A stretch of 63,637 nucleotides of DNA, counting the filler, from an uncultured Methanosarcinales archaeon (lineage in GTDB: Archaea; Nanobdellota; Nanobdellia; Woesearchaeales; CAYSVS01): assembly GCA_964434475.1 (NCBI GenBank). It is 4 parts of 4 records of this genome, joined end to end, with 100 filler letters (N's around TTAATTAATTAA, not from the genome) between each part and the next. Parts side by side here need not be neighbours in the genome. Positions count along the whole stretch, not along the records: positions 17,826 to 34,715 come from CAYSVS010000023.1; positions 34,816 to 50,860 come from CAYSVS010000025.1; 2 more parts are not named here. One strand, written 5' to 3'. This document shows, piece by piece, positions 24,852 through 48,320 of the stretch; the stretch's first letter is position 1; each line of letters opens with the position of its first letter. The notes below the pieces were generated by a model, which worked only from the letters and a program-made list of their open reading frames with translations, made no database searches and was not told the DNA's origin. The position numbers and the translations under genes are program-made.

Positions 24852-24920
24852 AGCCCAAGGAGATGTGGGAACCAAACTTTTAAAAAAAGTTTGATCAAAA
24901 CACGCCCCCAAGGGTATTTA
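24852..24920 (-). repeat. 71-bp-period insert duplicating the tRNA-Ile(UAU) 3' end, with a hairpin
   Basis: AGCCCAAGGAGAT at 24852-24864 and 24923-24935; hairpin CAAACTTTT-AAA-AAAAGTTTG at 24873-24893. Confidence 0.65.
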
Positions 24921-25030
24921 TGAGCCCAAGGAGATTTGAACCCCCGACCTCTGGCTAGCTTAGCTACTGTATCCCTAAGAACACAGCGTCATATAAGACC
25001 AGCGCTCTAACCAGACTGAGCTATGGGCTC
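24921..25030 (-). tRNA. tRNA-Ile(UAU) with a 35-nt intron at 37/38 (24957-24991)
   Basis: Acceptor GAGCCCA/TGGGCTC; arm CTGGT-CTTATA|A-GCCAG; CTTA/TAAG central BHB helix. Confidence 0.88.
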
Positions 25031-25083
25031 GTAATACTCTAGAATTTATATTTCGTTTATAAATGTTTTGGATGATTTGAGGT

Positions 25084-25383
25084 CTAAAAATCCCTTATTA
25101 CGGATCTTATCGAATCATCAGGCTTTTGATCAGGTTTGTCTGCAGGATCTTCAGATTCTTCTAATTTACCTGTTAAATCGCCTTGATCTTGTTTCCATTT
25201 GTTTTTAGCACCGATTACTTTCTCATTCAATTGAACTTCTGTAGTGTAAGCAGCTCCACTGCTTCCGCCTCCGCCGCCACCACAGCCAAAAGGAAGCAAA
25301 GAAGCACCCATTAAAACAGAATAAAATACACCTTGTTTAACAGAATCGTACAATTTTTCTTTAAATTTATTATCATAATACAT
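25084..25383 (-). CDS. Small Gly-rich lipoprotein-like protein
   Basis: Hydrophobic stretch followed by FGCGGGGGGSS. Confidence 0.55.
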   Translation of the reverse strand: MYYDNKFKEKLYDSVKQGVFYSVLMGASLLPFGCGGGGGGSSGAAYTTEVQLNEKVIGAKNKWKQDQGDLTGKLEESEDPADKPDQKPDDSIRSVIRDF

Positions 25384-25394
25384 AAAAAATCCCC

Positions 25395-28300
25395 CTATTC
25401 TTTTTGCAAATAGTTTGCAATTGTTAGTCTGTTGTCCAGTGGTTTATAAAAATATGCTATTGAAACTCCGTCATTTGTCACTATACACTCCCAATCTTCA
25501 TATTGTTGGCTATATGTACAGGTTGTCGTAAATGTTTCGCCTTGTGAAGTACTTTGCATATTGCAAGTAACACCAGAACAATACTTTATTCCAGAATCAA
25601 AATAATAAGTATCTGAATCATCCTGATAGCCTACAGCGGCGTTTGTTACCAATATAATATCATCTCCTGTAACATTGAAATATGCAACAGGCAAAGCAAA
25701 CTTGTGTTCATCATTTATGACAACAACACTAGGATTCAATATCTTACTGCTATCATCAAAGTCAAAAGCAGCAGCCTTAAGCAGGAATGTTTCGGTTTCT
25801 GTTGGAGTAACAGCAATCTCTTTTATGACAGAAACTTTATCTCCGTCATTGTCTGTTACTGTTAAATTTACATAATACAGCCCAGGAACATCATAAGTAT
25901 AGGAAGCTTGCTGTTCTGTGCTTTCAATAGTTCCATTGTTGTTAAAGTCCCATGAATGGGTTAAAGGTAGGTTGCCTGAATCTACGCTAGCTCCAAAGTT
26001 GACAGTTAAAGGCATAACTCCAGTTGTTGTATCTGCATTAATTGTTGGATCAGGAATCAAATCCTCTAAAACATCTATAGTTATTATAGAACTATTTGTG
26101 TCTCCATCAACATCCTCTACAGTTAATCTAGCAATATAGGTTCCACAGTCATTATAGGTATAAGAAGGATTCTCTTGAATACTGTCTATATTGCCATCGC
26201 CGTCAAAATCCCAATTATATGTCACAGGTAGATCTGCAGCTATTATGTTTGAAGTAAATGATACAGATAAAGGCTCTAAGCCTGAAGTAACATCAGAATC
26301 AATATCAAACAATACAAGATTATTATCTCCTACATTTATGGTTATGTTATCTGTGATGCATCTGTTTATATTGCATACCGTAACTTCAGCGACATATAAT
26401 CCTGTTTCACTATAAGTGTGTTGAGGAGATTTTGTTGTATAATCAACAACACCATCGTTGTCAATATCCCAAGCATAGTTCATTATAGGAAGTTTGTTAG
26501 TTATATCTGCATCAAAATTAACCGTCAATGGCTCTATGCCTGAAATTGTATCAGCCAACGCATCTACTATAGGGTCACTTTGCACCTCTATCTGAATATT
26601 ATCTGTATCTATGTCTCCATCAGCATCAGTAACAGTTACTTGAACATTATAAACCCCTTCTGAACTGAAAGTATGGTCCGATACTTTTGTTGTCGAAGAA
26701 GAGCCATCACCAAAATCCCATAAATAAGTGTAGGGAGCATTACCATTGTTTACAGTAACATCAAAATTTACTGACAAAGGTTCTAAACCTGAAGTTGAAT
26801 TTGCTGTGATTGAAGCAGAAGGCTGAGTATCTGCAATAGATGTTATCGCAACAGAGTCATAAGATTTGTCTCCATTTGCATCAGTTATCGTCAGGTTAGC
26901 AATATAATTTCCAGCAGGATAGCAATAGACAATATTCTCTGTTGTGCTATCAACTACACCATTATTGTCAAAATCCCACGAATATGTCAAAGGCAGATTG
27001 CCGCCTGTACCAGTTGCATTGAAAGATATGCATAAATTTTCTAAGCCAGATGTTGTGTTTGTTGATAAGCTTGCAGAAGGCATAAGATTAGCATCTACAT
27101 TTACATCAGCAGAAGCATAGCATTTATCACCATTTACATCAGTTACTGTAAAATTAACAACATATGAGCCAGAGTTGAAGACATTACTTGTGCTTTCTTG
27201 TGTTGAATCTACAGTGCCATCATTAGTATAATCCCAAGCATATGTATAAGGCAAGTTTCCATTTGTTATTGTTGAATTAAACAGCACATTCAATGGCTCA
27301 ATGCCTGTGTTAGGATTTACTATGATATTGCAGTCAGGTATAGTGTCAGCATCAACAGTTATTGATTGAAGTGAATGAACAGTATCTCCATCAAAATCAA
27401 CAACAGTTAAATTCACTAAATATGCACCTGGTGAATTAAAAGTATATGATGTTTTTTGTGAATTATTGTCTGATATCCTGTCATTTGTAAAGTCCCATGA
27501 ATATGTCAAAGGCAGGTTGCCATTTGTTACAGAAGCATTTAATTCCACAGTCAAAGGCTCTATACCTGATGTTGGAGCTGCAAAAATACTTAAGATAGGA
27601 ACAGTATCTGCATCTACAGTTATGGAAACAGATGAATAGCTCTTATCTCCGTTTGCGTCTGTTACTGTGAAATTTGCAACATAATTACCAGCTGAATAAC
27701 AATATTCTGAATCTTCGTTAGTTGAATCTGTTGAGCCATCATTAGTATAATCCCAAGAATATGTTAAAGGCAGGTTGCCGCTTGTCGCTGTTCCGTTAAG
27801 ATAAACGCATAATGGCTCTATGCCTGATGTTATATTTGCTGATGCGCTTGAACTTGGCATCAAGTCAGCTTCAACATTTACAGCAACTGAATCATAACAC
27901 ATATCTCCATCATTATCCTCTACTGTTAGATTTACTACATAAGAACCAGATGAGTAAATATGACCAGTATTGTTTTGAGTAGAATCAATTGTACCATCAT
28001 TAGTATAATCCCAACCTATAGTATAAGGAGCATTGCCACCAGCTACACTTGAGTTAAGATATACATCCAAAAGCTCTACTCCATTTGTTGAAGATGAAAC
28101 TATTGAACATATAGGAACAGTATCGCTGATAACAGATATCTGTAATATTGTCGAATTAACATCATTATTTGCGTCACTTACACTAAAATTAACATCATAG
28201 AAACCAGGCGCTGCAAAAACATAGCTCGTGTTCTGGCTTGTGTTGTCTGTAATTCCATTGTTTGTAAAATCCCAAGAATAGATCAATGGAAGATTTCCAG

Positions 28301-30938
28301 AATTTACTATGCCATCAAATTCAACAGACAAAGGAGCTAAGCCAGATGTTGTATTAGGAGATATAATAGGAGCAGGAACAAGATCTGCATCTACAGTTAT
28401 GGAAACAGATGAATAGCTTGTGTCTCCGTTTGCATCTGTTACTGTGAAATTTGCAACATAATTGCCGGCAGAATAACAATATTCTGAATCTTCAGTAGTT
28501 GAATCTGTTGAGCCGTCGTTAGTATAATCCCAGGAATATGTTAAAGGCAGATTGCCGCTTGTCGCTGTTCCGTTAAGATATACGCATAATGGCTCGATGC
28601 CTGAAGTTACATTTGCTGATGCGCTTGAGCCAGGCATAAGGTCTGCTTCAACATTTATTGTTGTTGTATTATGACACATATCACCATCGTTATCTTCAAC
28701 AGTCAAGTTTACGATGTAAACACCTGATGAATAGATATTATTGGTGTTGTTAAGATAGGAATCTATTGTTCCATCATTAGTATAATCCCAAGAAATGTTG
28801 TAAGGAGCATTGCCTCCTGCAACGCTTGAATTAAGATAAACATTCAATGGCTCTATGCCTGATGTTGGCGAGGAAACTATTGTACATATAGGGACAGTAT
28901 CAGCTATTGCAGTTATTTCAACAGAAGCATAGCTTTTGTCTCCATCTGCATCAGTTACAGTAAGATTTACTGTGTAAAAACCAGGTGCTGCAAAAGTATA
29001 GCTAGTGTTTTGAGTCATATTATCTGCTACACCATTATTGTCAAAATCCCATGAATAATTTAATGGGAGATTGCCGCTTATCGCTGTTGCGTTAAAATAT
29101 ACTGTTAAAGGAGCTAAGCCAGATGTTTCTGAGGATGTTATTGAAGCTGTTGGAGTTAAGTCAGGATCAACAGCAAAAAAATGTATCTCTGAATTACTGT
29201 TTATGTTTCCATCACTATCATTACATACATAGTATAATACATAGGATGAACCGCTTGTCAATCCGTTTAGTATGAAAGAATGTTTTTTTGTTCCTGTTAT
29301 ATTGAAATCAGTTCCTTCTGAAAAATCAAAATCCTTATCCGTCAAATTATATCTACAGACTGCACTTTCGTCAGTTGTTATATTTATGCTTGTTGATATT
29401 AAAGTGTATGAAATATTTGAGCTGTTTGCAGGGTTATTTATTGTAATTACAGGAGCTGTTGTATCAGGCAATAAACTGAATTCAACATAATTATTTGAAT
29501 CGTTTAGTTCTTCAATCTCATCATCTATATCTATTAACAGTTTTATCAAATCTGTATTGGTTATATTTACCCTATGGACAAGAATATTTTCTGTTGTTTG
29601 GTTTTCTACCTTTTCTAATGTGGTTTCCCCTATACGTTCTGATCTATTATTATATAACCTTATATTTGCGCTAAATGCTGAAGCAGTTCCTAAATTCTGA
29701 AGAGTAAAGTTTACAGTAGTGTAATTTACAGATGTATCTAGATATATATCTTCTGAATCAACATAAAGCTCTGGCAAAGGCGGCTTTGTAAAATCATCGT
29801 AAGTGTATTCTTTGGTGAAATATGGTTTTTCAGAATAATCCAATAATGAACCATCTCTTAATTTCATATATCCTATATAATAAGGTCCGTTTTTCTTTGA
29901 CAAGTACATATCTGTTGAGTTCATAATTATCAATATGTTATCTTGACCTTGAGTTAAAGAGATATTCTTTTTTATTTCCAATATGAAATTATCATATGTA
30001 TCATGTATAGCTGCTTCAAAGGAATATGTTTTTGATTCATTGACATCAACACTTACGTTTATTATCAATTGATCAATCTTTGTAGAAGATATGTTATATT
30101 CTCTGAATGAATTTGAAAAAACTGTTTTTTTAGGGTCAAAATCAATATAATTGTATTGGCTCAAGGTTTGGTTTATGTTGTAGTTATAATAGGTTTCTGA
30201 TGTTTTAATTATTACTTTTTTTAGATATAATGTGCTGTTCAGCATCTTTTCTCTTATATCTTTTGAATCAAAGTTTAAAGAAACTGTTTGTGTTCCTGAA
30301 CCTATTATTTCTGGTTGTTTTATGTTTACAAAATTGCTTTCGTTGTCATATAAATAAGCATATATGTTAACAGTTTCTGCAATTGAAGAATTTAATGTTA
30401 AATTAATCATTAACAGATCATACCTTACATCTCCTTGGTTGTCTATTGCAGTATCAGCAGTATAACTAAGATTCATCTCTTTGTTCTCATACAATTCTCT
30501 ATTGATGTTTAAGGAATAGTTTTTGTGTTTTCTTAGTATAAGTCCTGACTCATTATATATCTTTACAGAAAAATTATAGTTTTCATATTCCAATGATTTT
30601 GCTGAAAAATTAAATTTAGCTTTGTTTAATCCTGCGCCGTATGTTTTTTGGAATTCTTTGGATTGTACTATATTATGGTCATTATATAATTCTCCTATCA
30701 GCTTATAATCGTCTGCTTGTGTGTCCATAGATACGTTTACTACAAGATAATCATACTTCGCACTTCCGCCTACATCTAAGCCGGAGTGATCAATACTTGT
30801 AATCGAGACATATTGCGCATCATAATCCATATTATAGCTTGACAGGAGTTGGTCTAATGATATTGCGTTGACTAAACCTAAGCAAAGCAAGACTAAAGCA
30901 ATCGCATACACTATCCGTATTGTTTTGTTCTTATTCAT
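25395..30938 (-). CDS. Giant surface protein (1847 aa) with CARDB and about 13 PKD domains
   Basis: Signal peptide; repeated GxEPLxVxF...YSWDFxNDG...GxYxVNLTVTDxDG units; CARDB motif IEELNDSNN. Confidence 0.92.
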   Translation of the reverse strand: MNKNKTIRIVYAIALVLLCLGLVNAISLDQLLSSYNMDYDAQYVSITSIDHSGLDVGGSAKYDYLVVNVSMDTQADDYKLIGELYNDHNIVQSKEFQKTYGAGLNKAKFNFSAKSLEYENYNFSVKIYNESGLILRKHKNYSLNINRELYENKEMNLSYTADTAIDNQGDVRYDLLMINLTLNSSIAETVNIYAYLYDNESNFVNIKQPEIIGSGTQTVSLNFDSKDIREKMLNSTLYLKKVIIKTSETYYNYNINQTLSQYNYIDFDPKKTVFSNSFREYNISSTKIDQLIINVSVDVNESKTYSFEAAIHDTYDNFILEIKKNISLTQGQDNILIIMNSTDMYLSKKNGPYYIGYMKLRDGSLLDYSEKPYFTKEYTYDDFTKPPLPELYVDSEDIYLDTSVNYTTVNFTLQNLGTASAFSANIRLYNNRSERIGETTLEKVENQTTENILVHRVNITNTDLIKLLIDIDDEIEELNDSNNYVEFSLLPDTTAPVITINNPANSSNISYTLISTSINITTDESAVCRYNLTDKDFDFSEGTDFNITGTKKHSFILNGLTSGSSYVLYYVCNDSDGNINSNSEIHFFAVDPDLTPTASITSSETSGLAPLTVYFNATAISGNLPLNYSWDFDNNGVADNMTQNTSYTFAAPGFYTVNLTVTDADGDKSYASVEITAIADTVPICTIVSSPTSGIEPLNVYLNSSVAGGNAPYNISWDYTNDGTIDSYLNNTNNIYSSGVYIVNLTVEDNDGDMCHNTTTINVEADLMPGSSASANVTSGIEPLCVYLNGTATSGNLPLTYSWDYTNDGSTDSTTEDSEYCYSAGNYVANFTVTDANGDTSYSSVSITVDADLVPAPIISPNTTSGLAPLSVEFDGIVNSGNLPLIYSWDFTNNGITDNTSQNTSYVFAAPGFYDVNFSVSDANNDVNSTILQISVISDTVPICSIVSSSTNGVELLDVYLNSSVAGGNAPYTIGWDYTNDGTIDSTQNNTGHIYSSGSYVVNLTVEDNDGDMCYDSVAVNVEADLMPSSSASANITSGIEPLCVYLNGTATSGNLPLTYSWDYTNDGSTDSTNEDSEYCYSAGNYVANFTVTDANGDKSYSSVSITVDADTVPILSIFAAPTSGIEPLTVELNASVTNGNLPLTYSWDFTNDRISDNNSQKTSYTFNSPGAYLVNLTVVDFDGDTVHSLQSITVDADTIPDCNIIVNPNTGIEPLNVLFNSTITNGNLPYTYAWDYTNDGTVDSTQESTSNVFNSGSYVVNFTVTDVNGDKCYASADVNVDANLMPSASLSTNTTSGLENLCISFNATGTGGNLPLTYSWDFDNNGVVDSTTENIVYCYPAGNYIANLTITDANGDKSYDSVAITSIADTQPSASITANSTSGLEPLSVNFDVTVNNGNAPYTYLWDFGDGSSSTTKVSDHTFSSEGVYNVQVTVTDADGDIDTDNIQIEVQSDPIVDALADTISGIEPLTVNFDADITNKLPIMNYAWDIDNDGVVDYTTKSPQHTYSETGLYVAEVTVCNINRCITDNITINVGDNNLVLFDIDSDVTSGLEPLSVSFTSNIIAADLPVTYNWDFDGDGNIDSIQENPSYTYNDCGTYIARLTVEDVDGDTNSSIITIDVLEDLIPDPTINADTTTGVMPLTVNFGASVDSGNLPLTHSWDFNNNGTIESTEQQASYTYDVPGLYYVNLTVTDNDGDKVSVIKEIAVTPTETETFLLKAAAFDFDDSSKILNPSVVVINDEHKFALPVAYFNVTGDDIILVTNAAVGYQDDSDTYYFDSGIKYCSGVTCNMQSTSQGETFTTTCTYSQQYEDWECIVTNDGVSIAYFYKPLDNRLTIANYLQKE
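27600..29130 (-). repeat. 777-bp intragenic tandem duplication (three PKD domains)
   Basis: Matching anchors 777 bp apart (27606/28383 and 28331/29108). Confidence 0.8.
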
Positions 30939-31272
30939 TTTTATCTTTCTTTATCAAATATATCTTGTATATGATTAGTCCAAGGATGAAGCCGATGATG
31001 AAGTAGAAGAGAATAGCAAAAAAAGTAATAAAAAAAATATTCATTTCATCTATTGAAATTGAAAAAATACTTGATATTAATGAAGCAGGTAATAAAGGAA
31101 TAAAAACAAAAACAATACATACTAGAGAATTGCAATTAAAAATTACAAAAAGATAGGATATTAATAGTAACAAAACGAGCAATATTCCTCCAATAATACC
31201 TGAGAGCACCCATTTTTGTTTTTCACTTAAATTTTTTATTTTATCTACCATCTTTTTTACCATGTGCACCAC
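30931..31272 (-). CDS. Small multi-TM membrane protein
   Basis: Highly hydrophobic 113-aa ORF overlapping both neighbours. Confidence 0.7.
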   Translation of the reverse strand: MVHMVKKMVDKIKNLSEKQKWVLSGIIGGILLVLLLLISYLFVIFNCNSLVCIVFVFIPLLPASLISSIFSISIDEMNIFFITFFAILFYFIIGFILGLIIYKIYLIKKDKNE

Positions 31273-34190
31273 CAGGGTTTATCTTCTGGGTCGATTAAGT
31301 TATAACACCTTTGATGCGCATTATACTCATCCCCGTTTAATTTTCTCATAATAATATCTCGTGTTTCTTCTTTTTGAGCAAAGCTACTGAACCCCATATC
31401 AGAATGTGGTCCAAATACCTTGAAATAAGTTTTATTTGTTGAGTTAACATTAGAATAAATATTATCCACATCATCTTTAGTAACAACCCAATCACTTCCA
31501 TAATTGTCGTCAGTTACCCACCCCCTTATCGCAGCAAACTTGTTTAATGTTAAATTTACCGCAGGTTGATTATCATCCGAATATTTTGAAAAGTTATAAT
31601 ATTGTTTGAATAGATTTAAAGAAATCATTGCATCATTACTAAAATAATTATGACCATAACCCATTTTTAATAAGTCCTCAAATAAAATATGCATAACTCC
31701 TTTACTCTCTGAATTACTTATAACGCGTCCACCAACCAAATTCAACGCACTCTTCGCCGGACTCCCTCCCTCGAACGCGCCAGGAGCGCCTACCGCAACC
31801 AATGTCTCAATAGGATTCGCAGTCATTGAAGTATTCAACCAGTGTGTTCCGTTCCAGTACATGCTTATGTTTGCTATTCCAACATCATTCCACTTATCTA
31901 AAGAGCTTAAAGCAGTTCTAGCGCCGTTGCTAAAGCCAACATATTGTATCTTATCCTCGCCAGTATAAGCTTGAACACCAGCAATCAAAGCTGGCCAATA
32001 ATTATCTGTAAGATCATCAAAAGTATAATCATAACACTCGTCACATTCTATATCTGGCCCTCCAGTTATCTCTATCAACCAAACATCTCTTCCAGAAGCC
32101 GCCAATTCTCCGCCTAAATCCTCCCAATAACTTAGGTTGTTCCATAATCCTCCCGACATAACAACTGGAGTTTTAGTAAAATTAAAGTCAACTTTTCCGT
32201 CATAAAGAACATCAAGATATTCGTTGAAAGTCAATGTATGTTTTGGCGCGATATGCTTTAATCTTAATGTAACTAAATCATGAGTCTTAACAAATTCCTC
32301 TTCAAAATCATATCCTCCCATTAATCCTAAGCGAACAATGTCCCTGAAAGTTTCATTGTTTACCATATAGTATGGCTTATTTACTGGAGACTGAAAATAA
32401 TCAAAAATTGATAAAGCATCCATATTAGTTCGAGAAATAAACACATCCTTGTTCTTCTCAAGAACATCGTAATCAAACTTCCTTAGAGCAGCAACAATTC
32501 CCTCTATATCATTGCCTAAGACAAAAACATTAAGTTTTGAATCTTCAAAATTATTTATCAAAGCATTGTAAGGCATAGAATCCTTATTATCATATAATTT
32601 TACTGATCCGTCTTCAATACCCCAATCTAAATCATTCAGAGTATAATTATTATAAGCATTATAGCCTGCATGTATAACATAGTCTGCAAAAGAAATATCT
32701 TCTACTATATTATAATGTGTTAATTTATCAGACACGTAATCATAAAACAGTTCATTAAGTATTTCGGGTGATACGTTGATATCCAGATAAACATTAGCGG
32801 AATAATACTTATCTTGTATCATATTATTTCCTTCTTCAGATTCAGGAATAAGGTATAAAGGATCGACATAAACAAAAACCTCACTTTCTTTCTGCAAAGG
32901 CATCAAAGTTGATAATGTAACATTATCCAACCCTGTCAAACTATCATTATACAAAATTATCTTTTCATCAATTATCTCATTATCTTTAACTTCATAAAAA
33001 CTTATCTTAAAATTTCTTGCGCTTGTATTTCCAAGATTAAAAATATCAAAACTTATATTCACATTGCTTTCTTGTTTCTTGAAAATCAAATTTTTAGGAG
33101 TTAAATCAGGTAATATCCTATTAGTAACATTACCCCACATTATAGTAAAGATTATCTCTTTTTCATCACCTGGCTGTAATGTACCTATGTTATGTTGATA
33201 GCCTATCGCAGGATCCTCTTGTTTACCCAAAGGATCTACTATATTATATTCATTAAGATTATTTAGTTCATAATCTAAAAAATCTTCTGAAATCTCCCAA
33301 GTAGAGTTGCCTAAACCATGTCTTGATGACTGTACATTAGGATATATCAATATCTTAAATTGCGGAACATAAGTAGGGTTGGCATATATAAAGCTGTCTT
33401 CAGCAGGATTATAATATGCATACTCATTTTCAGGAAAACCATTGTCCATATCTAGCATATTAAATAATTTAACATTATACAGAGCCGAGCCGCCTATGTT
33501 TTTCACGATATAACCCATGTGGAAAAAGCTTCCATTCCTAGGAGTATCAAAATATCTTTTAACCTGCACGGATTCATTTTCAACCACAGAATAAACATAA
33601 TCGTCAACTATATTTCCTGAGACGCTTGTTGCAGCAGTTGTAGAAACAGTAATTGGCAATTCAGTATAGTCTCCTCCATTATCTACATAAGATCTCATCA
33701 AACCATAATTATCAGAATATACTGCATAAACATCGCCCCCTAAAGCACTGACTAATGCTTCACCGACATAGAAATTCCAACCTGAGTTTGAATAATGTTC
33801 GCATACGTTCAAATAAAACCTATCACCTAAAATATCTGCACATGCAATATTCTGTATTTTTGTGCCTCCTTTTTTTGTTTTCTTTAGAACAGGCTCGTCA
33901 TAAAAATCATCATTCTTATCTCTTTTTACTTTATTTGGTTTTTTGCTTCTAGAATAATATTCATCAATGCAAGGTTTGATTTGAGATTTTCTATCAAACT
34001 TATCTATATTATTAAAAACACTCCCTTTTTCTAAAACATAAGATTTGTAAAAAACAGGAGGAGAATCTTCCTTTACAACCAATATATCATCATTCTCAGG
34101 AAGATAATACATAGATAAAGGATGAGAATAAACCATAGGCATGCATAGAACAAATATACTTAATACCAAAACTAACATATCTAACTTCAT
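31257..34190 (-). CDS. Secreted CARDB-domain protein with C-terminal alpha/beta hydrolase (lipase/esterase-like)
   Basis: Signal peptide; CARDB (PDLT...IPESEEGNN); YTFDDL...TGEDKIQYVGFSNG nucleophile elbow; candidate Asp (SDWVV) and His (GPHS). Confidence 0.8.
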   Translation of the reverse strand: MKLDMLVLVLSIFVLCMPMVYSHPLSMYYLPENDDILVVKEDSPPVFYKSYVLEKGSVFNNIDKFDRKSQIKPCIDEYYSRSKKPNKVKRDKNDDFYDEPVLKKTKKGGTKIQNIACADILGDRFYLNVCEHYSNSGWNFYVGEALVSALGGDVYAVYSDNYGLMRSYVDNGGDYTELPITVSTTAATSVSGNIVDDYVYSVVENESVQVKRYFDTPRNGSFFHMGYIVKNIGGSALYNVKLFNMLDMDNGFPENEYAYYNPAEDSFIYANPTYVPQFKILIYPNVQSSRHGLGNSTWEISEDFLDYELNNLNEYNIVDPLGKQEDPAIGYQHNIGTLQPGDEKEIIFTIMWGNVTNRILPDLTPKNLIFKKQESNVNISFDIFNLGNTSARNFKISFYEVKDNEIIDEKIILYNDSLTGLDNVTLSTLMPLQKESEVFVYVDPLYLIPESEEGNNMIQDKYYSANVYLDINVSPEILNELFYDYVSDKLTHYNIVEDISFADYVIHAGYNAYNNYTLNDLDWGIEDGSVKLYDNKDSMPYNALINNFEDSKLNVFVLGNDIEGIVAALRKFDYDVLEKNKDVFISRTNMDALSIFDYFQSPVNKPYYMVNNETFRDIVRLGLMGGYDFEEEFVKTHDLVTLRLKHIAPKHTLTFNEYLDVLYDGKVDFNFTKTPVVMSGGLWNNLSYWEDLGGELAASGRDVWLIEITGGPDIECDECYDYTFDDLTDNYWPALIAGVQAYTGEDKIQYVGFSNGARTALSSLDKWNDVGIANISMYWNGTHWLNTSMTANPIETLVAVGAPGAFEGGSPAKSALNLVGGRVISNSESKGVMHILFEDLLKMGYGHNYFSNDAMISLNLFKQYYNFSKYSDDNQPAVNLTLNKFAAIRGWVTDDNYGSDWVVTKDDVDNIYSNVNSTNKTYFKVFGPHSDMGFSSFAQKEETRDIIMRKLNGDEYNAHQRCYNLIDPEDKPWWCTW

Positions 34191-34289: not shown

Positions 34290-34715
34290 AGTAACATACG
34301 AACTGTTGGAAACTGCAGGCTGAATACCTCGCCGAAGCTTGGCACTTACACCTCAGTCCCATTAAACCTGTGTTTTTCAGGTGTTCTAGGATATCTCGTT
34401 TTGAGTAGGGTTTCATGCTTAGATGCATTCAGCATTTATCCCTTAATGCGTAGCTGCCCGGCTTACCTTATCAGATAACCGGTAGACCAGAGGCATCGAA
34501 CTTTCGTTCCTCTCGTACTAGAAAATCCTTACTCTCAGATATCCAACATCTCTAGTAGATATTAAACAAACTGCCTCACAGCGTTCTGAACCCAGCTCAC
34601 AACCCTTTTAATGGGTGAACACCCCCACCCTTGGACGCTTCTGCACGCCCAGGATAGGATGAGCCGACATCGATGTAGCAAGCCGCGCCGTCGATATGAG
34701 CTCTCGGGCGCGACA
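34290..34715 (-). rRNA. 23S rRNA, 3'-terminal fragment (3' boundary approximate)
   Basis: Sarcin-ricin loop AGTACGAGAGGAAC (34506-34519), PTC GATGTCGGCTCATC and GAGCTGGGTTCAGAAC, and GAATGCATCTAAGC. Confidence 0.97.
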
Positions 34716-34815
34716 NNNNNNNNNNNNNNNNNNNNNNNNNNNNNNNNNNNNNNNNNNNNTTAATTAATTAANNNNNNNNNNNNNNNNNNNNNNNNNNNNN
34801 NNNNNNNNNNNNNNN
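34716..34815. other. Artificial contig-join linker
   Basis: N-run containing TTAATTAATTAA. Confidence 0.9.
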
Positions 34816-41477: not shown

Positions 41478-41605
41478 CCAACTACCCGTCGTAGCAAGCT
41501 ACGAGATATACGCTAGATTTTTTGCTACGGAATCAAAATTTTTAAGATTACAAACTGAAAACCATTGCAAAGCAAAGAGGTATAAAACCCTGTTTGTAAT
41601 TAAAC
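41478..41605. other. Structured intergenic element (possible IS200/IS605-type end remnant or ncRNA)
   Basis: Hairpin TCGTAGC-AA-GCTACGA (41489-41504); stem ATTACAAAC/GTTTGTAAT (41547-41555/41592-41600). Confidence 0.35.
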
Positions 41606-41884
41606 AAAGAAAATAACTATAAAAACAAAACATATAAAAAATAAACCTTCAAATAAAAAAATCTTTTTATATCCTTTTGAATTAAGCTACAATCCTAAAG
41701 ATATTAAAGATAAAATAATCTCAATTTTCTAAAAATAGATAAATAAACCAATATATCATTTGTTCCTTAAAAGCAATATTAAAAAGCTTATCAAAAGAAA
41801 TACTTTTTTGATTAATTTAACCTTAAACCAATATTATTTACAATTAATTTAATAAAATAGAATAAAAAATATATTACTTTGCTT

Positions 41885-42577
41885 TTACTTCTTTTCTTTC
41901 ATCCCTTTAGTTATCCGAGATAATTCATTGACATTCTCTGTCAATGTAGGAAGTATCTTCTGGAAAACCTTTTCCAAAGCTTTTATCTCTGTGCCAACAT
42001 TAGACAAGCTTTCATCATATTCACCAATCTTACCCACAATACCTTTATGCAGATTATCAAAATTATCCTTAAGATCAGTAAACTTTTGTTCAAGTTGAGA
42101 AATCTTAGTTTCTGTAGATTCCTTCCATTCTACAACAGATTTTATATCTTTTACCAGTTCTTCCCACTTCTCCTCAATAATAGTTTCTGCAACCTCTTGT
42201 ATTAGCTCTCTATCCGGCCCTCCAACATTTCTTTGTTGAGGCGCAAAACTAGGAGGAGCTTCAGCAGGAGTTTCAGTTGCTCGATTAACCTCTTCTGAAA
42301 CACCAGATTCCTGTTGTTGTGGCTGCATAGGATTTTCGGGAGAAGACATATTTTCTACTTGTCCAGGCTGCATAGGCGCTACACTACCTTTGATATCAGC
42401 CTGGTTCATAGCATCAAAAATATCGTGACTTTTGTAACCTTCTCTCTGTAAAGTCTGTACAATCTGATTATTAGAATATCCTTGATTTCTCATCTTGAGA
42501 ACCATATCTGTAGGTGGTCCACTTGGTGATGGAGTTGGCTCCGCTTTTTTTTCCTCACTTTTACCGAATAATGCCAT
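41885..42577 (-). CDS. Coiled-coil protein adjacent to the secretion ATPase
   Basis: N-terminal helical motif (RNQGYSNNQI), Pro/Gln linker and long coiled coil; GAGGT RBS. Confidence 0.8.
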   Translation of the reverse strand: MALFGKSEEKKAEPTPSPSGPPTDMVLKMRNQGYSNNQIVQTLQREGYKSHDIFDAMNQADIKGSVAPMQPGQVENMSSPENPMQPQQQESGVSEEVNRATETPAEAPPSFAPQQRNVGGPDRELIQEVAETIIEEKWEELVKDIKSVVEWKESTETKISQLEQKFTDLKDNFDNLHKGIVGKIGEYDESLSNVGTEIKALEKVFQKILPTLTENVNELSRITKGMKEKK

Positions 42578-42616
42578 AATTTTACCTCTTTTAACAATAT
42601 CTGTTAAAATTCTTAT

Positions 42617-43081
42617 TTAAACCTTTTGATTTTCTAACATCCGCTTAACTATAGATTCAACATCCTTCTCTGTAACATATTTTATAGGCTCCCACAGATT
42701 AATATATCTTTGTAAAATACCAACATCCTCTTTTTTAGCAGTAAGCTTCAACTCTTTTATTATAATATCCATAGTATTCTTTACTTTCTCCAAATCCTTC
42801 TTAATAGTTAAAATATCATCATTAACCGTCCTTATCTCTGTATTGAACTTCTTGGTAGAAGATATCATATTCTGATCACTGACCTGTATTCTCCTCGACA
42901 GATTATTGAATCTTTCTTCAACTACTCTTATCCTTCTTGTAACCCCGTTTACAGAATTAGTCAGATTACCTACACTTTCTTTTAGTTCTTTAGTCACATC
43001 TTTTTTGGGACCAAAAAAACCTTGTTTCTTTTCCTGCTGCTCAGCATCTTTCTTTTTTGTACCAAAACTTAGTTCTACCAT
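42617..43081 (-). CDS. Coiled-coil protein
   Basis: Heptad pattern ending YINLWEPIKYVT. Confidence 0.8.
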   Translation of the reverse strand: MVELSFGTKKKDAEQQEKKQGFFGPKKDVTKELKESVGNLTNSVNGVTRRIRVVEERFNNLSRRIQVSDQNMISSTKKFNTEIRTVNDDILTIKKDLEKVKNTMDIIIKELKLTAKKEDVGILQRYINLWEPIKYVTEKDVESIVKRMLENQKV

Positions 43082-43239
43082 TTTTTTATCCTTGTTTAAT
43101 CCTTTATTATTAATATATTTATGATCTTTTCCAAAATTTATTCATATTATAGCAATCTTTATATATTAATTTATTTATTATTTAAACTATATTAATTAAA
43201 TTTATGTGAGCATTAACCAGTAAGAAAAGAGGTGTATTA

Positions 43240-45522
43240 ATGGCAGAGTGTTTCAGTTATGATATAATTAGAGAAGGAGAAGATACGATTTTAAGAATAG
43301 ACTGTGAATCCTGCACTTTTGTCCCTTCTCTCGAAGATAATACTATGACTATGTCTAAAACCATAGATATAATCACGGAAATGACCAATGTATCAAAGAT
43401 AGTCTATATACAAAAAAGAGATTATGAATATGATTATTATCAAACCCAACTTCTTGTCGAGATAGCATCGCTTTATAAAAAACTGTTGAAACAAAGATCC
43501 ATGTTCAGTTTTGACGCCCTATCTGCAGATCCTAACTGCAAAACTTTTGCAGCCACATGGCACGCAGAAATACAGAACACGATAATAAAGATGCTGAAAA
43601 GCGATCCTTTAGGCGCATACGTAGAATTAAAAAGAGCAGAGAGAAGAGAAAGAATACATCTTGATACCTTAAAAGACAAAAAATTTGAGCAATGCATAAA
43701 AAAATACATCCAACTGATAAATTATTTCCTAACTCTACTGGATAAAACAAAACTTATCACTATATCTAAACCATATTTACCAGGATATAAAGTAGGAGAC
43801 AGGACAATATACAGAAAAGTTTTCCAACCTACAATCAAACCAGATTTTATGTTTACTAAATTGATGGCAGCATATCCTAGCGATGGCCAAGAAATAGACA
43901 GCTACGAACTTGCTGAAAATACAGAAGTTACAATATTCAAATTTCCTGATTCTGTAAGATATCTATATCACATGATGCCGCCTGAGTTTAAGCTAGAGGA
44001 AGAAGAATATGAAATTCTAGACCTTGCAAGAAAAATCATGTCAGAACATAAACCCAAAAAATCTGAATTCGTAAATCCTGAAAGGATGAGAGACGTATTC
44101 TTTAACATAGGCAAAGATCTTATAGAGGAATTAGCAAACTATAGACATTACCATATAATAGATTCTGAGATTGAAAAATTAGCCAATATTTTAGTAAGAT
44201 ACACAGTAGGATTTGGTCTTATAGAAGTACTATTATCAGATGAAAAGATACAAGACATATCTGTCAACTCACCATACGGACAAACACCAATTTTCATAGT
44301 CCATGGAAGCTATGATGACTGTTATACCAACATAATACCTACAAGAGCAGAAGCAGAAAGCTGGGCATCAAAATTAAGGCTAATGTCAGGAAGACCACTG
44401 GATGAAGCCAACCAAATATTAGATACAGAGATAGAACTTCCTGTCGCAAGCTCAAGAGTAAGCGTTATTACAGAACCATTAGATCCTACAGGATTAGCAT
44501 TCTCCTTCAGACGCCATAGAGACAAACCATGGACCCTGCCTTTATTCATACAGAATAAGATGATTTCTCCATTGGCAGCCGGATGTCTAAGTTTTTTGAT
44601 AGACGGAACAAGAACATTGCTCATAGCCGGAACAAGAAGCTCAGGTAAATCAAGCTTTTTAGGCTCCTTGCTTGTAGAAATCATGAGAAGATATAGAGTA
44701 TTGACCATAGAAGATACTTTAGAACTGCCTACCAATTCTTTAAGAAAATTAGGTTTCAACATACAACCCATGAAAGTTGCAAGTGCTTTAGCAAAAGGCA
44801 CATCAGAAATGCCTGCAAGCGACGGCATAAGAGCCACATTAAGATTAGGGGACAGTGCATTAATAGTAGGAGAGGTTAGAAGTAAAGAAGCCGTTGCATT
44901 ATATGAAGCTATGAGAGTCGGTGCTGCAGCAAACGTAGTTGCTGGCACTATACACTCAGATTCTCCATACGGAGTATATGACAGAGTAGTTAATGATATA
45001 GGCGTTCCTAAAACAAGCTTTAAAGCGACAGATGTAATTATAGTTGCAAATCCTGTAAAAAGTGCATCAGGAATGAAAAAACTGAGAAGGATAACACAAA
45101 TAACAGAGGTAAGAAAAACCTGGGAAAATGATCCTTTAGCAGAAGGAGGATTCAAAGATTTGTTCAAATACGATGCGAAATCAGACACATTAGAACCTAC
45201 CAAAGACCTTATCAACGGAGATATTGAAATTTTAAAGACAATTGCAGGAAACATCAAAGAGTTTGCAGGCAACTGGGATGCAGTATGGGAAAATATCCAA
45301 TTAAGAGCTAAAATCAAGAAGACACTAATTAAATACTCTGAAGAAAACAAAGATCCTGAACTTCTTGAAGCTGAATTCGTGATAAAATGCAATGATACTT
45401 ATCATAACTTATGCGAGAAAGTAAGTTCAGAGATAGGACATCTGGATTCTGACAGAATATTTTTCGAATGGGACGAATGGATCAAGAAAGAGATAAAGAA
45501 AAAGAAAATCAAGCATTACTAA
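43240..45522 (+). CDS. Type II/IV secretion or pilus ATPase (FlaI/TadA/VirB11 family) with N-terminal extension
   Basis: Walker A GTRSSGKS, Asp box TIEDTLEL, Walker B LIVGEVR and His box GTIH. Confidence 0.92.
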   Translation: MAECFSYDIIREGEDTILRIDCESCTFVPSLEDNTMTMSKTIDIITEMTNVSKIVYIQKRDYEYDYYQTQLLVEIASLYKKLLKQRSMFSFDALSADPNCKTFAATWHAEIQNTIIKMLKSDPLGAYVELKRAERRERIHLDTLKDKKFEQCIKKYIQLINYFLTLLDKTKLITISKPYLPGYKVGDRTIYRKVFQPTIKPDFMFTKLMAAYPSDGQEIDSYELAENTEVTIFKFPDSVRYLYHMMPPEFKLEEEEYEILDLARKIMSEHKPKKSEFVNPERMRDVFFNIGKDLIEELANYRHYHIIDSEIEKLANILVRYTVGFGLIEVLLSDEKIQDISVNSPYGQTPIFIVHGSYDDCYTNIIPTRAEAESWASKLRLMSGRPLDEANQILDTEIELPVASSRVSVITEPLDPTGLAFSFRRHRDKPWTLPLFIQNKMISPLAAGCLSFLIDGTRTLLIAGTRSSGKSSFLGSLLVEIMRRYRVLTIEDTLELPTNSLRKLGFNIQPMKVASALAKGTSEMPASDGIRATLRLGDSALIVGEVRSKEAVALYEAMRVGAAANVVAGTIHSDSPYGVYDRVVNDIGVPKTSFKATDVIIVANPVKSASGMKKLRRITQITEVRKTWENDPLAEGGFKDLFKYDAKSDTLEPTKDLINGDIEILKTIAGNIKEFAGNWDAVWENIQLRAKIKKTLIKYSEENKDPELLEAEFVIKCNDTYHNLCEKVSSEIGHLDSDRIFFEWDEWIKKEIKKKKIKHY

Positions 45523-45523
45523 G

Positions 45524-47752
45524 ATGGCAGAACAAGACGAAATAAAGAAATTAAGTGTAAAATTTAAGAAAAAAATAAAGAAAGAATTAGATTCAGATAC
45601 TACCCACATAGATACTAACACCGAAGAGCCAGATATAACAGAAGCACCAGTAACAAAAGAATATGCTGAATTCAAGAAGCAATACATGCCCAAACATATG
45701 ACCTGGTATGAAAAAGCATGCAACCATTCTGAAAAATTGCTGAATGTAAAACCAGGTCCTGTAGATAAAAAAAAATTAGAAGAAGCTATTAAATTTACGC
45801 ATCTCGACATAACTCCAACAGGAGCTATGTCTTTATCTATACTAGCTCCTCTTGCTCTTGCATTTATAGGAGCATTTTTAGGTTATCTTATACCTTTGCT
45901 TTTGACAGGAGAAAGCATTTTCTTTTTCATATTTTTCTTTCTGTTTGTTGCAATTATAATGATCAATCCTCTTAAACAAATTCCTATATTCATATCCAAC
46001 AACTGGAAACTTAAAGCAAGCAGTCAGATGGTATTATGTGTATTTTACATAGTAACCTATATGCGCCATACATCTAATCTAGAATTGGCTGTTGAATTCG
46101 CTAGTCAGCATCTTTCTGCTCCTTTAAACCTTGACTTAAGGAAAGTATTATGGGATGTTGAGACAGAAAAATATGAATCAATGCAAGAATCTCTAGAAAC
46201 ATATCTTCAAAGATGGAAAAAGACAAATCTAGAATTTGTCGAAGCTATGCACCTTATAGAAGGATCGTTGTTAGAAGGCGAGGAAACAAGAAGGTTAAGC
46301 ATGCTAGACAAATCATTAAGCGTTATGCTTGAAGAAACATATGAAAAGATGCTTCACTATGCTCAGAATTTACAACAACCTATAACCATGCTTAACATGC
46401 TTGGAATCATACTACCTATATTAGGATTAGTAATACTACCTTTGGTAGTAAGTTTTATGCAGGGTACAAAATGGTACCATATAGCAACAATGTATAACGT
46501 ATTTCTACCTATAGTCGTGTATTATCTAGGAAAAACTATACTTGCCTCAAGACCTTCAGGATATGGAGAGGTTGACATAAGCAATAATCCTGCATTAAAA
46601 AAAAGACAGAACAAAAAATTGTTTGGAATAGATATCAAACCATTGAACTATGCAATAATCATAGGAGTTATATTCTGTTTTATAGGACTAAGCCCTTTGA
46701 TGCTCCACATGATAAACCCTAATTGGGATATGATTATTACAAATGAGGGTAATTTTTTGTCAATAAATTCTATACCTTCAGAAGCACCAAAATATGCCTT
46801 TTTGGAATACAAATGTCCATCTGGAGAAACATGCGAAGCAAGTGAAGCATCAGGTCCTTTCGGACTAGGAGCTACATTATTAAGCATAGCCTTTACATTA
46901 GGTATAGGATGGGGACTTTCTTCATATTATAAAACAAAGTCTGCAAATGTCATGAAGATAAGGAACGAATCAAAAAAATTAGAAAAAGAGTTCGCTTCTG
47001 CACTATTCCAACTAGGAAACAGACTAGGAGATGGATTTCCTGCAGAGATGGCATTCGGAAAAGTTGCAGAGACTATGGAAGGCACTGTTTCAGGAGACTT
47101 TTTTGCATTAGTATCCAACAATATAAAAAGATTAGGCATGAGTGTAGAGCAAGCGATATTTGACCCGCATTCAGGAGCTTTGACAAAATATCCTTCTGAT
47201 CTTATCGAGAGTTCTATGAAAGTATTGACAGAAAGTGTCAAGAAAGGACCTAAGATAGCAGCACAAGCTTTAGTAAACATCTCCCAATACATCAAAGAGA
47301 TGCACAAAGTAAATGAAAGGCTTAAAGACCTTATGGCAGAAAACTTGTCTTCAATCAAAGGCCAGATAAAATTCTTAACACCTTCTATTGCAGGAATAGT
47401 GATAGGAATCACTTCAATGGTCACAACAATATTAGGAAAACTGACTACACAGATGACTACAATAGCATCAGAAAGTGGATCTGCAGGCGCAGGAATGGGA
47501 GGACTTATGGATATGTTCAAAACACCAAGCGTTCCTGCATATTATTTCCAGATTATAGTTGGATTATATGTTGTACAAATTGTCTATATACTTACAGTAT
47601 TAGCTAACGGAATCGAAAACGGTTCAGATAAGTTAGCTGAAAGATATGAGTTAGGAAAGAACCTATTCAGAAGTGTAGGATTGTATTGTGCTATTTCTTT
47701 TATTGTAATACTTATGTTCAATCTGGTTGCTTCTGCAATATTAAGAGGATAG
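45524..47752 (+). CDS. TadB/TadC/FlaJ-like membrane platform protein (two T2SSF-like halves)
   Basis: Multi-TM protein with two cytoplasmic domains (NLELAVEFAS; FASALFQLGNRLGDG); starts 1 nt after the ATPase. Confidence 0.75.
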   Translation: MAEQDEIKKLSVKFKKKIKKELDSDTTHIDTNTEEPDITEAPVTKEYAEFKKQYMPKHMTWYEKACNHSEKLLNVKPGPVDKKKLEEAIKFTHLDITPTGAMSLSILAPLALAFIGAFLGYLIPLLLTGESIFFFIFFFLFVAIIMINPLKQIPIFISNNWKLKASSQMVLCVFYIVTYMRHTSNLELAVEFASQHLSAPLNLDLRKVLWDVETEKYESMQESLETYLQRWKKTNLEFVEAMHLIEGSLLEGEETRRLSMLDKSLSVMLEETYEKMLHYAQNLQQPITMLNMLGIILPILGLVILPLVVSFMQGTKWYHIATMYNVFLPIVVYYLGKTILASRPSGYGEVDISNNPALKKRQNKKLFGIDIKPLNYAIIIGVIFCFIGLSPLMLHMINPNWDMIITNEGNFLSINSIPSEAPKYAFLEYKCPSGETCEASEASGPFGLGATLLSIAFTLGIGWGLSSYYKTKSANVMKIRNESKKLEKEFASALFQLGNRLGDGFPAEMAFGKVAETMEGTVSGDFFALVSNNIKRLGMSVEQAIFDPHSGALTKYPSDLIESSMKVLTESVKKGPKIAAQALVNISQYIKEMHKVNERLKDLMAENLSSIKGQIKFLTPSIAGIVIGITSMVTTILGKLTTQMTTIASESGSAGAGMGGLMDMFKTPSVPAYYFQIIVGLYVVQIVYILTVLANGIENGSDKLAERYELGKNLFRSVGLYCAISFIVILMFNLVASAILRG

Positions 47753-47835
47753 AAAAGACAAAGAGATCTATAATAAAATTAAGAAACAAATCTCCCTGTT
47801 CATACACCTATATAATTTTTCAACATACATAATTA

Positions 47836-48320
47836 TAGAAAATAAAAGATGAGAAAGGGGATGATTCTCACCAACCTTTTGGACAAGCAAAAACGTTGAC
47901 GAAAATTNNNNNNNNNNNNNNNNNNNNNNNNNNNNNNNNNNNNNNNNNNNNNNNNNNNNNNNNNNNNNNNNNNNNNNNNNNNNNNNNNNNNNNNNNNNNN
48001 NNNNNNNCGTTGACGAAAATTCTGTACGTTTCGCAAACTCAACAGCACAATAGCAAAAATAAGAAATAGAAAATAAAAGGTGGGAAAGGGGATGATTCTC
48101 ACCAACCTTTTGGACAAGCAAAAACGTTGACGAAAATTCTGTACGTTTCGCAAACTCAACAGCACAATAGCAAAAATAATAAATAGAAAATAAAAGATGA
48201 GAAAGGGGATGATTCTCACCAACCTTTTGGACAAGCAAAAACGTTGACGAAAATTCTGTACGTTTCGCAAACTCAACAGCACAATAGCAAAAATAAGAAA
48301 TAGAAAATAAAAGGTGGGAA
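47836..48320 (-). repeat. 117-bp tandem repeat (at least 3 units) downstream of tRNA-Phe, each unit ending in a copy of the tRNA 3' end
   Basis: CGTTGACGAAAATT at 47894, 48008, 48125 and 48242; tRNA-end-like segments at 47848, 48079 and 48196; spans the N gap. Confidence 0.9.
47908..48007. other. Scaffold gap (100 N) inside the tandem repeat
   Basis: Plain N-run; both flanks carry the same repeat sequence. Confidence 0.95.

Follow-up and report, generated by a model that had tools for sequence, protein, structure and literature searches.

A family of small hairpin-bearing repeats behind tRNA genes in a Woesearchaeota-like archaeon, with related copies inside tRNA introns

The DNA analysed here, called the window, is a stretch of 63,637 nucleotides made of four contigs (C22, C23, C25, and C36) of the metagenome-assembled genome (MAG) GCA_964434475.1. 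It contains two short inserts, one behind the gene for tRNA-Ile(UAU) and one behind the gene for tRNA-Phe(GAA), which are members of a genuine family: small inserts without genes that follow unrelated tRNA genes, some of them stacked in tandem. The unit of the family is a two-hairpin module, here called M, with covarying hairpins, flanking target duplications, a right end that is constant, a left end that varies, a closest relatedness among copies of the same genome, and an orientation that depends on the context. With a probability of about 0.55, M is non-autonomous and spreads as a repeat through one-ended duplicative copy-in, and is not an element integrated into T-loops by an integrase.

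The source MAG (G000) is archaeal, with a size of 1.5 Mb in 148 contigs, 33% GC, and a completeness of 97%. The comparison covered 61 genomes of the order, G000 included, among them the sister genome G001. The contigs of the window are joined by N44, a 12-nt palindromic linker, and another N44 at positions 17726-17825, 34716-34815, and 50861-50960, and distances and synteny across these joins are meaningless. Positions 24852-48320, given for the two inserts by a previous reading of the sequence alone, do not form one genomic stretch: the tRNA-Ile gene is located on contig C23 and the tRNA-Phe gene on contig C25. Copies of M were searched for with R1, a covariance model built from eight aligned copies in G000, from which the copy at tRNA-Ile was left out; the E-values given by R1 are only rough.

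The tRNA-Ile(UAU) gene is located at positions 24921-25030 on the minus strand (Rfam tRNA model, 56.2 bits; ARAGORN -i, C23:7096-7205) and contains a 35-nt intron in its anticodon loop. On the tRNA strand, the tRNA is followed by a 55-nt insert and then by an exact 13-nt copy of its tail, in which nucleotides 59-71 of the tRNA are repeated with 13 of 13 identities (24852-24864, minus strand; original at 24923-24935). The insert, as delimited by the sequence and R1 (24865-24920, minus strand), consists of a trailer or left part, a T-rich linker, a hairpin of 9 bp with a 3-nt loop (hairpin 2; 24873-24893, minus strand), and a 7-nt tail. It thus represents a short form of M without the second hairpin of the module, box A. 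In a search of the whole genome, R1 recovers this copy at C23:7042-7085 (E 5.4e-4, 29.8 bits), and it is assigned to the family because a model built without it finds it and because its context is identical. AUA codons are decoded in this genome by a tRNA-Ile whose gene encodes a UAU anticodon instead of CAU. In G002, this tRNA carries a T-loop insertion of 28 nt, and in G015 (L014) a T-loop intron of 93 nt that contains M.

The tRNA-Phe(GAA) gene (48313-48388, minus strand; ARAGORN, and Rfam with 67.5 bits) is followed by a tandem array of at least four units of 117 bp (47835-48312, minus strand; TRF and R1), which is broken by an assembly gap of 100 Ns belonging to contig C25 itself (47908-48007). 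TRF reports a period of 117 bp, 2.7 copies, and 96% matches at 48008-48325, and the repeat resumes past the gap to 47835, which gives at least four units. Each unit opens with a piece of the trailer, followed by box A, a T-rich linker, and hairpin 2, and is closed by a decayed copy of the tRNA-Phe 3' end with a 13-nt trailer. In the tRNA-proximal unit, box A is located at 48258-48282 (other copies at 48141-48165 and 48024-48048), hairpin 2, which is the hairpin that had been picked out previously, at 48220-48246 (other copies at 48103-48129 and 47872-47898), and the closing tail copy at 48183-48213, all on the minus strand. Further tail copies are located at 48066-48096 and 47835-47865, and the original at 48300-48329, also on the minus strand. 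Contigs of another assembler, probably from the source run, stop at the array and leave 47871-48138 uncovered, and their repeat pieces have a depth of 46-58, compared with 9-10 in the flanks. As a rough hint, this contig depth suggests five or six units, although it does not represent independent DNA. Neither the Ile nor the Phe insert contains an open reading frame (ORF); two ORFs of 149 and 156 aa that run through the array and the N gap (48282-47768 in the direction of reading, that is, window 47768-48282 on the minus strand) are repeat artefacts and not genes.

The sequence confirms both inserts at the positions where the sequence-only reading had placed them, the copies of the tRNA 3' ends, and their common break, with both copies leaving the tRNA at the same point in the T-loop, after ATC on the tRNA strand. 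The likeness that had been seen between the Ile and Phe hairpins is not above chance, with a local score of 17 compared with 15.2 ± 2.3 for dinucleotide shuffles, 251 of 1000 of which reach it.

Beyond these two sites, a short-word BLAST search with the Phe unit against the genome identified a 49-nt stretch of 96% identity behind tRNA-Leu(UAA) on contig C93, as well as related pieces on two further contigs, C7 and C73. With an nhmmer profile, additional copies were detected behind tRNA-Ser(CGA), tRNA-Cys, and a tRNA cut by an N gap (C48), and at two non-tRNA sites (C12 and C18). R1 gave 13 matches at E<1e-3, distributed over 10 loci; eight of these copies were used to train the model, and the Ile copy, two copies on C48, and further array units are independent of the training. 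Seven of the 10 loci are placed directly behind a visible tRNA gene, within about 120 nt of its 3' end (binomial P ~1e-12 to 1e-18), which is more than chance would give. An eighth locus, on C73, ends in an N gap and carries a Leu-like tRNA tail. The association was also recovered in a test that makes no use of the module: a copy of the last 14 nt, with at most two mismatches, was present within 400 nt downstream of 6 of the 26 tRNAs called by ARAGORN, and in none of three control segments (upstream, and both reverse strands). In Rfam, only tRNA and rRNA reach the threshold in the window, and no family matches M at E<=1 in seven loci, except for rows at the level of chance. No description of the family was found in full-text searches of the literature, which left supplements aside.

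The module begins with a left part that is not always present, followed by the box A hairpin, a T-rich linker, and hairpin 2, and closes with a tail of 5-7 nt. Box A has a varying stem (GTGT/GCAC, GTGTTATC/GATATCAC, GCTGGA/TCCTGC, GTCC/GGAC, ATAGG/CCTAT, or GTGCAGC/GCTGCAC) around a conserved T-GA-GC ... GC-GA-A interior. The linker contains a conserved TTGTTTT(T), and hairpin 2 is of the types CCAGG-T5 ... A5-GCTGG, CAACG ... GGTTG, or CAAAC ... GTTTG. A run of T5 in the linker and runs of T4-T8 in hairpin 2 are located on the sense strand. The left end is variable: 0-37 nt separate box A from the repeat, and hairpin 2 alone is present in some copies (Ile, G001 Leu, and C81-M1 in G002). The inserts are 55-117 bp in size. 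No terminal inverted repeats were seen at the ends of about 30 repeat-flanked copies that were read by eye, no dedicated repeat-finder being run, and the inverted repeats of M are its internal hairpins.

The hairpins are supported by compensatory changes. Among 61 distinct copies, 87.7% of the cells are paired, compared with 69.2% after shuffling, in an alignment that was fitted to the model and hence favours pairing. Changes on both sides were observed in 16 of the 18 pairs, which is reached in 0 of 500 shuffles, while slid controls gave 47-62%. G-T pairs (45) outnumber A-C pairs (15), and a conserved G-G mismatch in hairpin 2 was seen 38 times. In single-sequence folding, copies of the CCAGG type give a clear signal (z -2.9 to -3.9) and the Ile copy a weaker one (z -2.09). 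The identification of box A as a K-turn was rejected, as the register with a 3-nt bulge suits the copy at tRNA-Ser and not the one at tRNA-Leu(CAA), and we describe it as a tandem G-A motif.

Behind tRNA genes, M is oriented in the tRNA sense in 7 of 7 cases in G000 and in 15 of 15 repeat-flanked copies in the relatives. After M comes a tRNA copy that starts at approximately nucleotide 59, past the centre of the T-loop, and continues into the T-rich trailer. In G000, the duplication comprises 26 or 27 of 27 nt at tRNA-Leu(CAA), 24 nt without mismatch at tRNA-Ser, about 24 nt with one indel at tRNA-Cys, 15 nt plus a decayed trailer at tRNA-Leu(UAA), and 13 nt at tRNA-Ile, and it is decayed at tRNA-Phe. 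The two non-tRNA sites have duplications of 41 nt with three mismatches (C12) and about 12 nt (C18). Exact repeats in the relatives measure 30 nt (L109), 18 nt (L027 and L023), and 17 nt (L022 and L120), and a repeat of 46 nt with mismatches is present at L103. Overall, the duplications are 10-46 bp and not of fixed length. The start of the repeat was surveyed at 18 loci (17 that were aligned and the tRNA-Leu of G001), where it corresponds exactly to nucleotide 59 at seven loci, to nucleotide 59 with later decay at three, to nucleotide 58 or 59 at two, and to the acceptor stem at one (tRNA-Phe in G002); the rest, including Phe, are too decayed to be placed.

The 5-7 nt between hairpin 2 and nucleotide 59 vary among closely related modules and resemble the local T-arm. 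Because closely related modules differ in it, this tail is not a fixed part of M. It reads GGTTC at tRNA-Leu(UAA), tRNA-Ile, and the tRNA-Leu of G002, and GTGCA at a tRNA-Thr that has this unusual T-loop. At non-tRNA targets, it reads GGTAGAG, which corresponds to the last codons of a protein gene, and an exact GTACCT in L109, where the 30-nt duplication begins immediately past hairpin 2. A scan of metagenome contigs, the second that was made, gave three contigs, all from a G002-like organism. On a G002-like contig, an array of six units is located behind a protein gene, and its spacers copy the last 20-22 nt of the gene, including the first five bases of the spacer. These copies next to hairpin 2 at non-tRNA sites indicate that the duplicated target starts at hairpin 2, usually with GG(T). 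Our explanation of the break point shared by the Ile and Phe copies is that it would represent the GG(T) joint at the junction of the T-stem and the T-loop. A non-matching block of 1-4 nt is often present 3-9 nt from hairpin 2, whether or not the site is a tRNA gene.

Within one genome, modules at unrelated loci share 84-98% identity; those at tRNA-Leu(CAA) and C73 are 98% identical, and those at tRNA-Ser and tRNA-Leu(CAA) 89%. Orthologous copies are less alike, with 65% identity at tRNA-Cys, 69% at tRNA-Phe, and a range of 65-79%. For the copies in G000 and G002, the closest relative is in the same genome in 14 of 18 cases and at the orthologous locus in 1 of 18. At tRNA-Leu(UAA), G001 and G002 have a different hairpin followed by T9 where G000 has M. 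The near-identity of modules within a genome and their divergence at orthologous sites show that the sites have been struck repeatedly and independently. A clean empty site was found only at tRNA-Phe in G001, and the Leu, Ile, and Cys sites of that genome contain other or decayed modules. The exact 33-nt tRNA-Leu(CAA) site gave 0 matches in metagenome contigs. The tRNA-Leu(UAA) of G002 (L097; G002:C78:4455-4660) also has an extra insertion of about 30 nt on the 5' side of the T-arm, which is not present in G000 or G001.

In the relatives, R1 matches 26 of the 61 genomes at E<=0.01, with 23 matches in G002, 17 in G053, 10 each in G015 and G059, and a single one in G001. The flanks were read for 64 matches (41 of 65 from a first set and 23 of 25 from a second), which comprised the best matches per genome, all those in G002, and most of those in G053 and G015, with array units, duplicate loci, and partial matches excluded. 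Among these, M is located behind a tRNA in the sense orientation in 19 cases, 15 with a repeat and 4 in which no repeat was found. Another 12 copies are placed within tRNA genes, in the T-loop, the anticodon loop, or the D-arm, and all of these are antisense, as are 5 copies beside a tRNA 3' end, 3 copies located 5' of a tRNA whose 5' part is repeated over 17-22 nt, and 2 copies in an insertion in the 16S rRNA gene. Seven copies are located at the ends or starts of protein genes or at other sites, with repeats, and the contexts of the remaining 16 were classified as other.

The copies within tRNA genes look like parts of introns. A bulge-helix-bulge (BHB) site consists of a helix, a 3-nt bulge, a 4-bp helix, and a 3-nt bulge at the intron borders. 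When antisense M copies in T-loops were excised in silico, with removal of about 80-100 nt each, ARAGORN recognised a tRNA spanning the joint in 5 of 5 tested cases (Glu twice, Ile-UAU, Gly, and Ser). By reading, UUCA of the T-loop is opposite UGAA at the distal end of the insert in the T-loop introns, and UUCG is opposite CGAA, which fits a BHB site at position 59/60, with a good motif in L021. In contrast, the two copies in the window and the other copies in G000 are not introns, as they are placed behind complete tRNAs. A BHB half-motif (TGAGA-AT) is present in G000 at tRNA-Leu(CAA), C73, and tRNA-Phe, and not at tRNA-Cys, tRNA-Leu(UAA), or tRNA-Ile; a BHB interpretation of the right junction in G000 (UUCA-TGAG pairing with AAU bulges) fits only the former three and was abandoned. 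We also rejected an origin of the behind-tRNA copies as by-passed introns, in which an intron-containing gene is healed by a new 3' exon, because M is in the sense orientation behind tRNAs (15 of 15 and 7 of 7) and antisense in 12 of 12 introns.

Three further contexts were observed in the relatives. The antisense M in the 16S rRNA genes of G022 (L024:1501-1571) and G020 (L028:478-548) is part of an insertion between ...GCAAACCGGA and ATACCC..., which looks like an rRNA intron made of the M repeat. In G010, the arrangement differs from the others, as antisense M starts at the discriminator base of three tRNA-Leu genes, without a trailer (L015, L115, and L116). In G052, two identical copies of M (L117:481-544 and L118:454-517) are enclosed by the paired flanks GCGTAAGCAC ... 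GTGCTGAAGCGTAC, which look like another structured RNA carrying an insertion.

According to the reading that we favour, one-ended duplicative copy-in is the process by which M multiplies in genomes of this DPANN (Woesearchaeota-like) order. The right end of M, immediately beyond hairpin 2, would be joined to a site of the GG(T) type, which in tRNAs is the GGTTC at the T-stem/T-loop junction. The left end would be variable, and the target between the two joints (10-46 bp; in tRNAs, the stretch that begins in the T-loop and ends a few nucleotides into the T-rich trailer) would be duplicated, so that the tRNA-proximal copy remains an intact gene and the distal copy becomes a decaying relic. Repeated insertion and unequal exchange could then build tandem arrays such as the one behind tRNA-Phe. 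The copying itself may be a template switch (copy-choice), anchored by microhomology and performed by host or other enzymes; the combination of one fixed and one variable end, donor flank that is carried along, long and variable duplications, and microhomology and small errors at the fixed joint points to such a copy-in. The copying could be carried out by a host DNA polymerase or by a reverse transcriptase that escaped recognition. Oligo-T stretches have a role in archaeal transcription termination, and the T5-T8 runs of sense-oriented M may act as a terminator. This would explain why M follows genes in the sense orientation, whereas the copies in introns or upstream of genes, where transcription has to pass, are antisense.

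Several observations weigh against this reading. A filled and an empty site in a pair of near-identical sequences were not found among the genomes and contigs compared, and insertion is deduced from the repeats. The context counts depend on the judgement of the reader of the flanks, and the single-sequence folds of Phe-type units are only modest (z -1.56 and -1.70). The repeats at the tRNA-Phe of G002 and the tRNA-Lys of G052 begin in the acceptor stem and not in the T-loop, and no repeat is detectable at some copies behind tRNAs (L072, L073, L102, and L111). Template switching is a default explanation that must have recurred many times, and long variable duplications, truncation of the 5' type, and a fixed end of the 3' type are also marks of target-primed reverse transcription.

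A dedicated enzyme is the alternative that fares best, although we consider it unlikely. It would be a nuclease or transposase, of the HUH kind or of a new type, that recognises hairpins and cuts past hairpin 2 and at the GG(T)/T-loop, with a second, variable break producing the long duplication. Such an enzyme would agree with the strong target preference, with the conservation of the box A interior in every context and orientation, and with a right end at a fixed distance from a hairpin whose conserved G-G mismatch makes the two strands distinguishable, as in sites that are recognised as single-stranded DNA. Candidate genes do not follow the family, however. Y1_Tnp is present in 17 of the 61 genomes, uncorrelated with M and absent from G015, G053, and G059, Cas1 is present in 5 of the 61 genomes, unrelated to M, and neither RVT_1 nor Phage_integrase tracks M. 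A related autonomous insertion sequence (IS) was not found in the genomes with M, where Y1_Tnp was checked and DDE families were not searched. The neighbours of the copies examined in G059 are housekeeping genes (a helicase, RadA, and an ATPase). Moreover, known HUH elements insert without target duplication, while the duplications here are 10-46 bp long and unfixed. G000 itself contains a Cas1 gene (298 bits; C112:225-1028) and a gene for an IS200-type Y1 transposase (C102:1625-1969), neither of which is near a copy of M.

Slightly less probable still is the model of the sequence-only reading, in which an element of 70-120 bp with its own attP is mobilised in trans by a tyrosine integrase and the repeats represent attL and attR. 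The repeats around M follow the course of the att sites of tRNA-targeting elements, which begin in the T-loop, cross the 3' end of the tRNA, and reach into the trailer. The sequence is imperfect to the left of the junction and exact to the right of it, tandem arrays occur, and G000 contains two matches to the integrase family (Phage_integrase, PF00589). Yet an attP-bearing circle hopping between tRNAs would leave chimeric tRNAs, and at least eight tRNAs in one genome have related modules for which both repeats match the local tRNA. The 10-46-bp repeats are also found at the ends and starts of protein genes and on the 5' side of tRNAs; they are long and variable in length, and exact identity spans only the last two nucleotides of the T-loop. 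Integrases are present in 52 of the 61 genomes irrespective of M, the M-rich genomes G059 and G052 have none, and no integrase adjoins any of the copies that were read. In viral contigs, a scan with one degenerate M motif gave 0 matches. The model fails because the repeats are local at many tRNAs, targets other than tRNAs are used, the lengths vary, and integrases are nearly universal. The description of a small, gene-less family flanked by tRNA tails holds, while mobilisation by a tyrosine integrase at the T-loop is not supported, and neither Phage_integrase nor Y1_Tnp matches track M. The other suggestion made at the time, that the inserts are small RNAs processed from the 3' side of the tRNAs, also appears disfavoured because T5-T8 runs separate the tRNA from the M hairpins and because M is antisense elsewhere.

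Retroposition, with an M-sense RNA serving as the template of target-primed reverse transcription at a nicked GG(TT) site, is improbable. It would account for the constant right end, the truncated or variable left end, the left flank carried over from the donor, the 10-46-bp duplications, and the microhomology at the joint. In a bolder version, the distal tRNA copy would be cDNA of the pre-tRNA, and the scar at nucleotides 57-58 would reflect m1I57/m1A58, in line with exact identity from nucleotide 59, directly 3' of A58, at the seven clear and three decayed loci. Nevertheless, RVT_1 is present in only 9 of the 61 genomes, and none was found in G000 (97% complete), G001, or G015 despite copies that look recent. 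Protein-gene sites show the scar too, about as far from the hairpin, which indicates that it tracks the joint and not a modified base; with no reverse transcriptase found, these scars weaken the idea of an m1A58 stop behind the boundary at nucleotide 59. In addition, the repeats extend past T5-T6 runs where tRNA transcripts should end, and transcription of an M-sense RNA would need to continue across the T5-T8 runs of M itself. Finally, it is very improbable that M is not mobile at all and represents local terminator or small-RNA modules duplicated with the tRNA tail by slippage, alike through convergence or old paralogy: arrays with higher-order repeats do show local duplication, and another hairpin with a T-run is placed behind tRNA-Leu(UAA) in G001 and G002, but the high identity at unrelated loci (84-98%, compared with 65-79% at orthologous ones), the presence of the same module in introns, rRNA, and protein genes across many genera, and the exact 17-30-nt repeats around single copies speak against it.

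M bears on the origin of archaeal tRNA introns, which is an open question. Similar introns in different tRNAs of Thermoproteales have been taken to imply transposition at the DNA level by an unknown mechanism (Fujishima et al. 2010, in the summary given in PMC4090602), intron gain via a recombinase-bearing element was proposed in 2012 for one tRNA-Thr locus (PMC3293823), and in a 2026 preprint on Asgard tRNAs, how tRNA introns arrive is still considered open (10.64898/2026.10.13.758758). Like the transposed BHB introns of Thermoproteales, M fills introns in T-loops, anticodon loops, and D-arms in the relatives. It differs in that the copies in G000 are placed behind intact tRNAs with tail duplications, and also at protein genes, and in that the intron M of the relatives has the opposite orientation to the behind-tRNA M of G000. 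It is conceivable, as a tentative extension of the copy-in reading, that M is a working vehicle of archaeal intron gain by duplicative copy-in anchored at GG(T) and loops, in which the terminating orientation survives only behind genes. Insertions in the permissive orientation into T-, anticodon-, and D-loops and rRNA would survive as new BHB introns because the splicing endonuclease of these archaea, with its broad specificity, can remove them. One family is observed in two states, as fresh-looking insertions with exact duplications in G000 and as introns in sister lineages, and M provides a countable object for intron gain at the DNA level, with junction rules, an orientation rule, and young copies. 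If the copying polymerase reads RNA, in a target-primed manner and without a canonical reverse transcriptase gene, M would be the first retroposon family of archaea that resembles short interspersed elements (SINEs).

The family shares features with several known systems. Like MITEs (miniature transposable elements with inverted repeats) and the REP and Correia repeats, M is a short intergenic sequence without genes that is present in many copies and forms hairpins; it may act as a terminator and needs functions provided in trans. It differs from these in having no terminal inverted repeats, one fixed and one variable end, long and variable duplications (10-46 bp) in place of short ones of constant length, and no related transposase. 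Palindromic elements of the IS200/IS605 group have subterminal hairpins and a TnpA (Y1) partner and insert without target duplication. The similarity of M to them is confined to the hairpins, as M has duplications and Y1_Tnp does not track it. Non-LTR (long terminal repeat) retroposons and SINEs have in common with M a fixed 3' end, a variable 5' end, variable duplications, and transduction of flanks; in contrast to these, M has no A-tail and a prokaryotic host, and no reverse transcriptase was found in G000. Like tRNA-targeting integrative elements, M has a repeat with its start in the T-loop, by which the 3' end of the tRNA is restored or duplicated. Unlike these, it is found at many tRNAs and at non-tRNA sites, has no linked or tracking integrase, and uses sites that share almost no T-loop sequence for a crossover. 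Behind the E. coli tyrT gene, there are 178-bp repeats that each contain the last ~19 nt of tRNA-Tyr, at a single locus, with no dispersed family known, and with a copy that includes the CCA end. The Phe array resembles these repeats in that tandem units each end in a copy of the tRNA 3' end, while the copies at M sites carry the genomic trailer and the family is dispersed. Casposons are large, encode Cas1 and a polymerase, and have terminal inverted repeats and 14-15-bp duplications. M differs from them, with inserts of 55-117 bp without an ORF and no relation to the Cas1 genes found in 5 of the 61 genomes. Features shared with M are insertion at tRNA 3' ends (PMC5137440), target duplication, and tandem arrays at one site. 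SSV is an example of an element that integrates into tRNA arms (PMC4090602). The MITE-like C/D sRNA element of Pyrobaculum (PMC6009581) is distinct from M.

The elements also have consequences for assembly and annotation. Their arrays break assemblies, with N gaps at the Phe, C48, and C73 arrays, and the repeats create false ORFs. The tRNA yield of G000 is low for a completeness of 97%, with 26 ARAGORN calls and 18 Rfam tRNA matches, and several of the former have odd anticodons (aaa, aat, and att). M elements probably hide tRNA genes from annotators, and many tRNA genes in G000 are probably concealed by non-canonical introns.

Outside the inserts, a 742-aa ORF beside the Phe array (45524-47752, plus strand) has no significant Pfam family, and the gene beyond tRNA-Phe (48433-48837, minus strand) encodes an SSB-like OB-fold protein. 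The 3' end of a 23S rRNA gene (positions 2550-2973 of the archaeal model) is represented by two adjacent matches at 34300-34718 on the minus strand, at the extremity of contig C23, where the gene is cut by the contig end.

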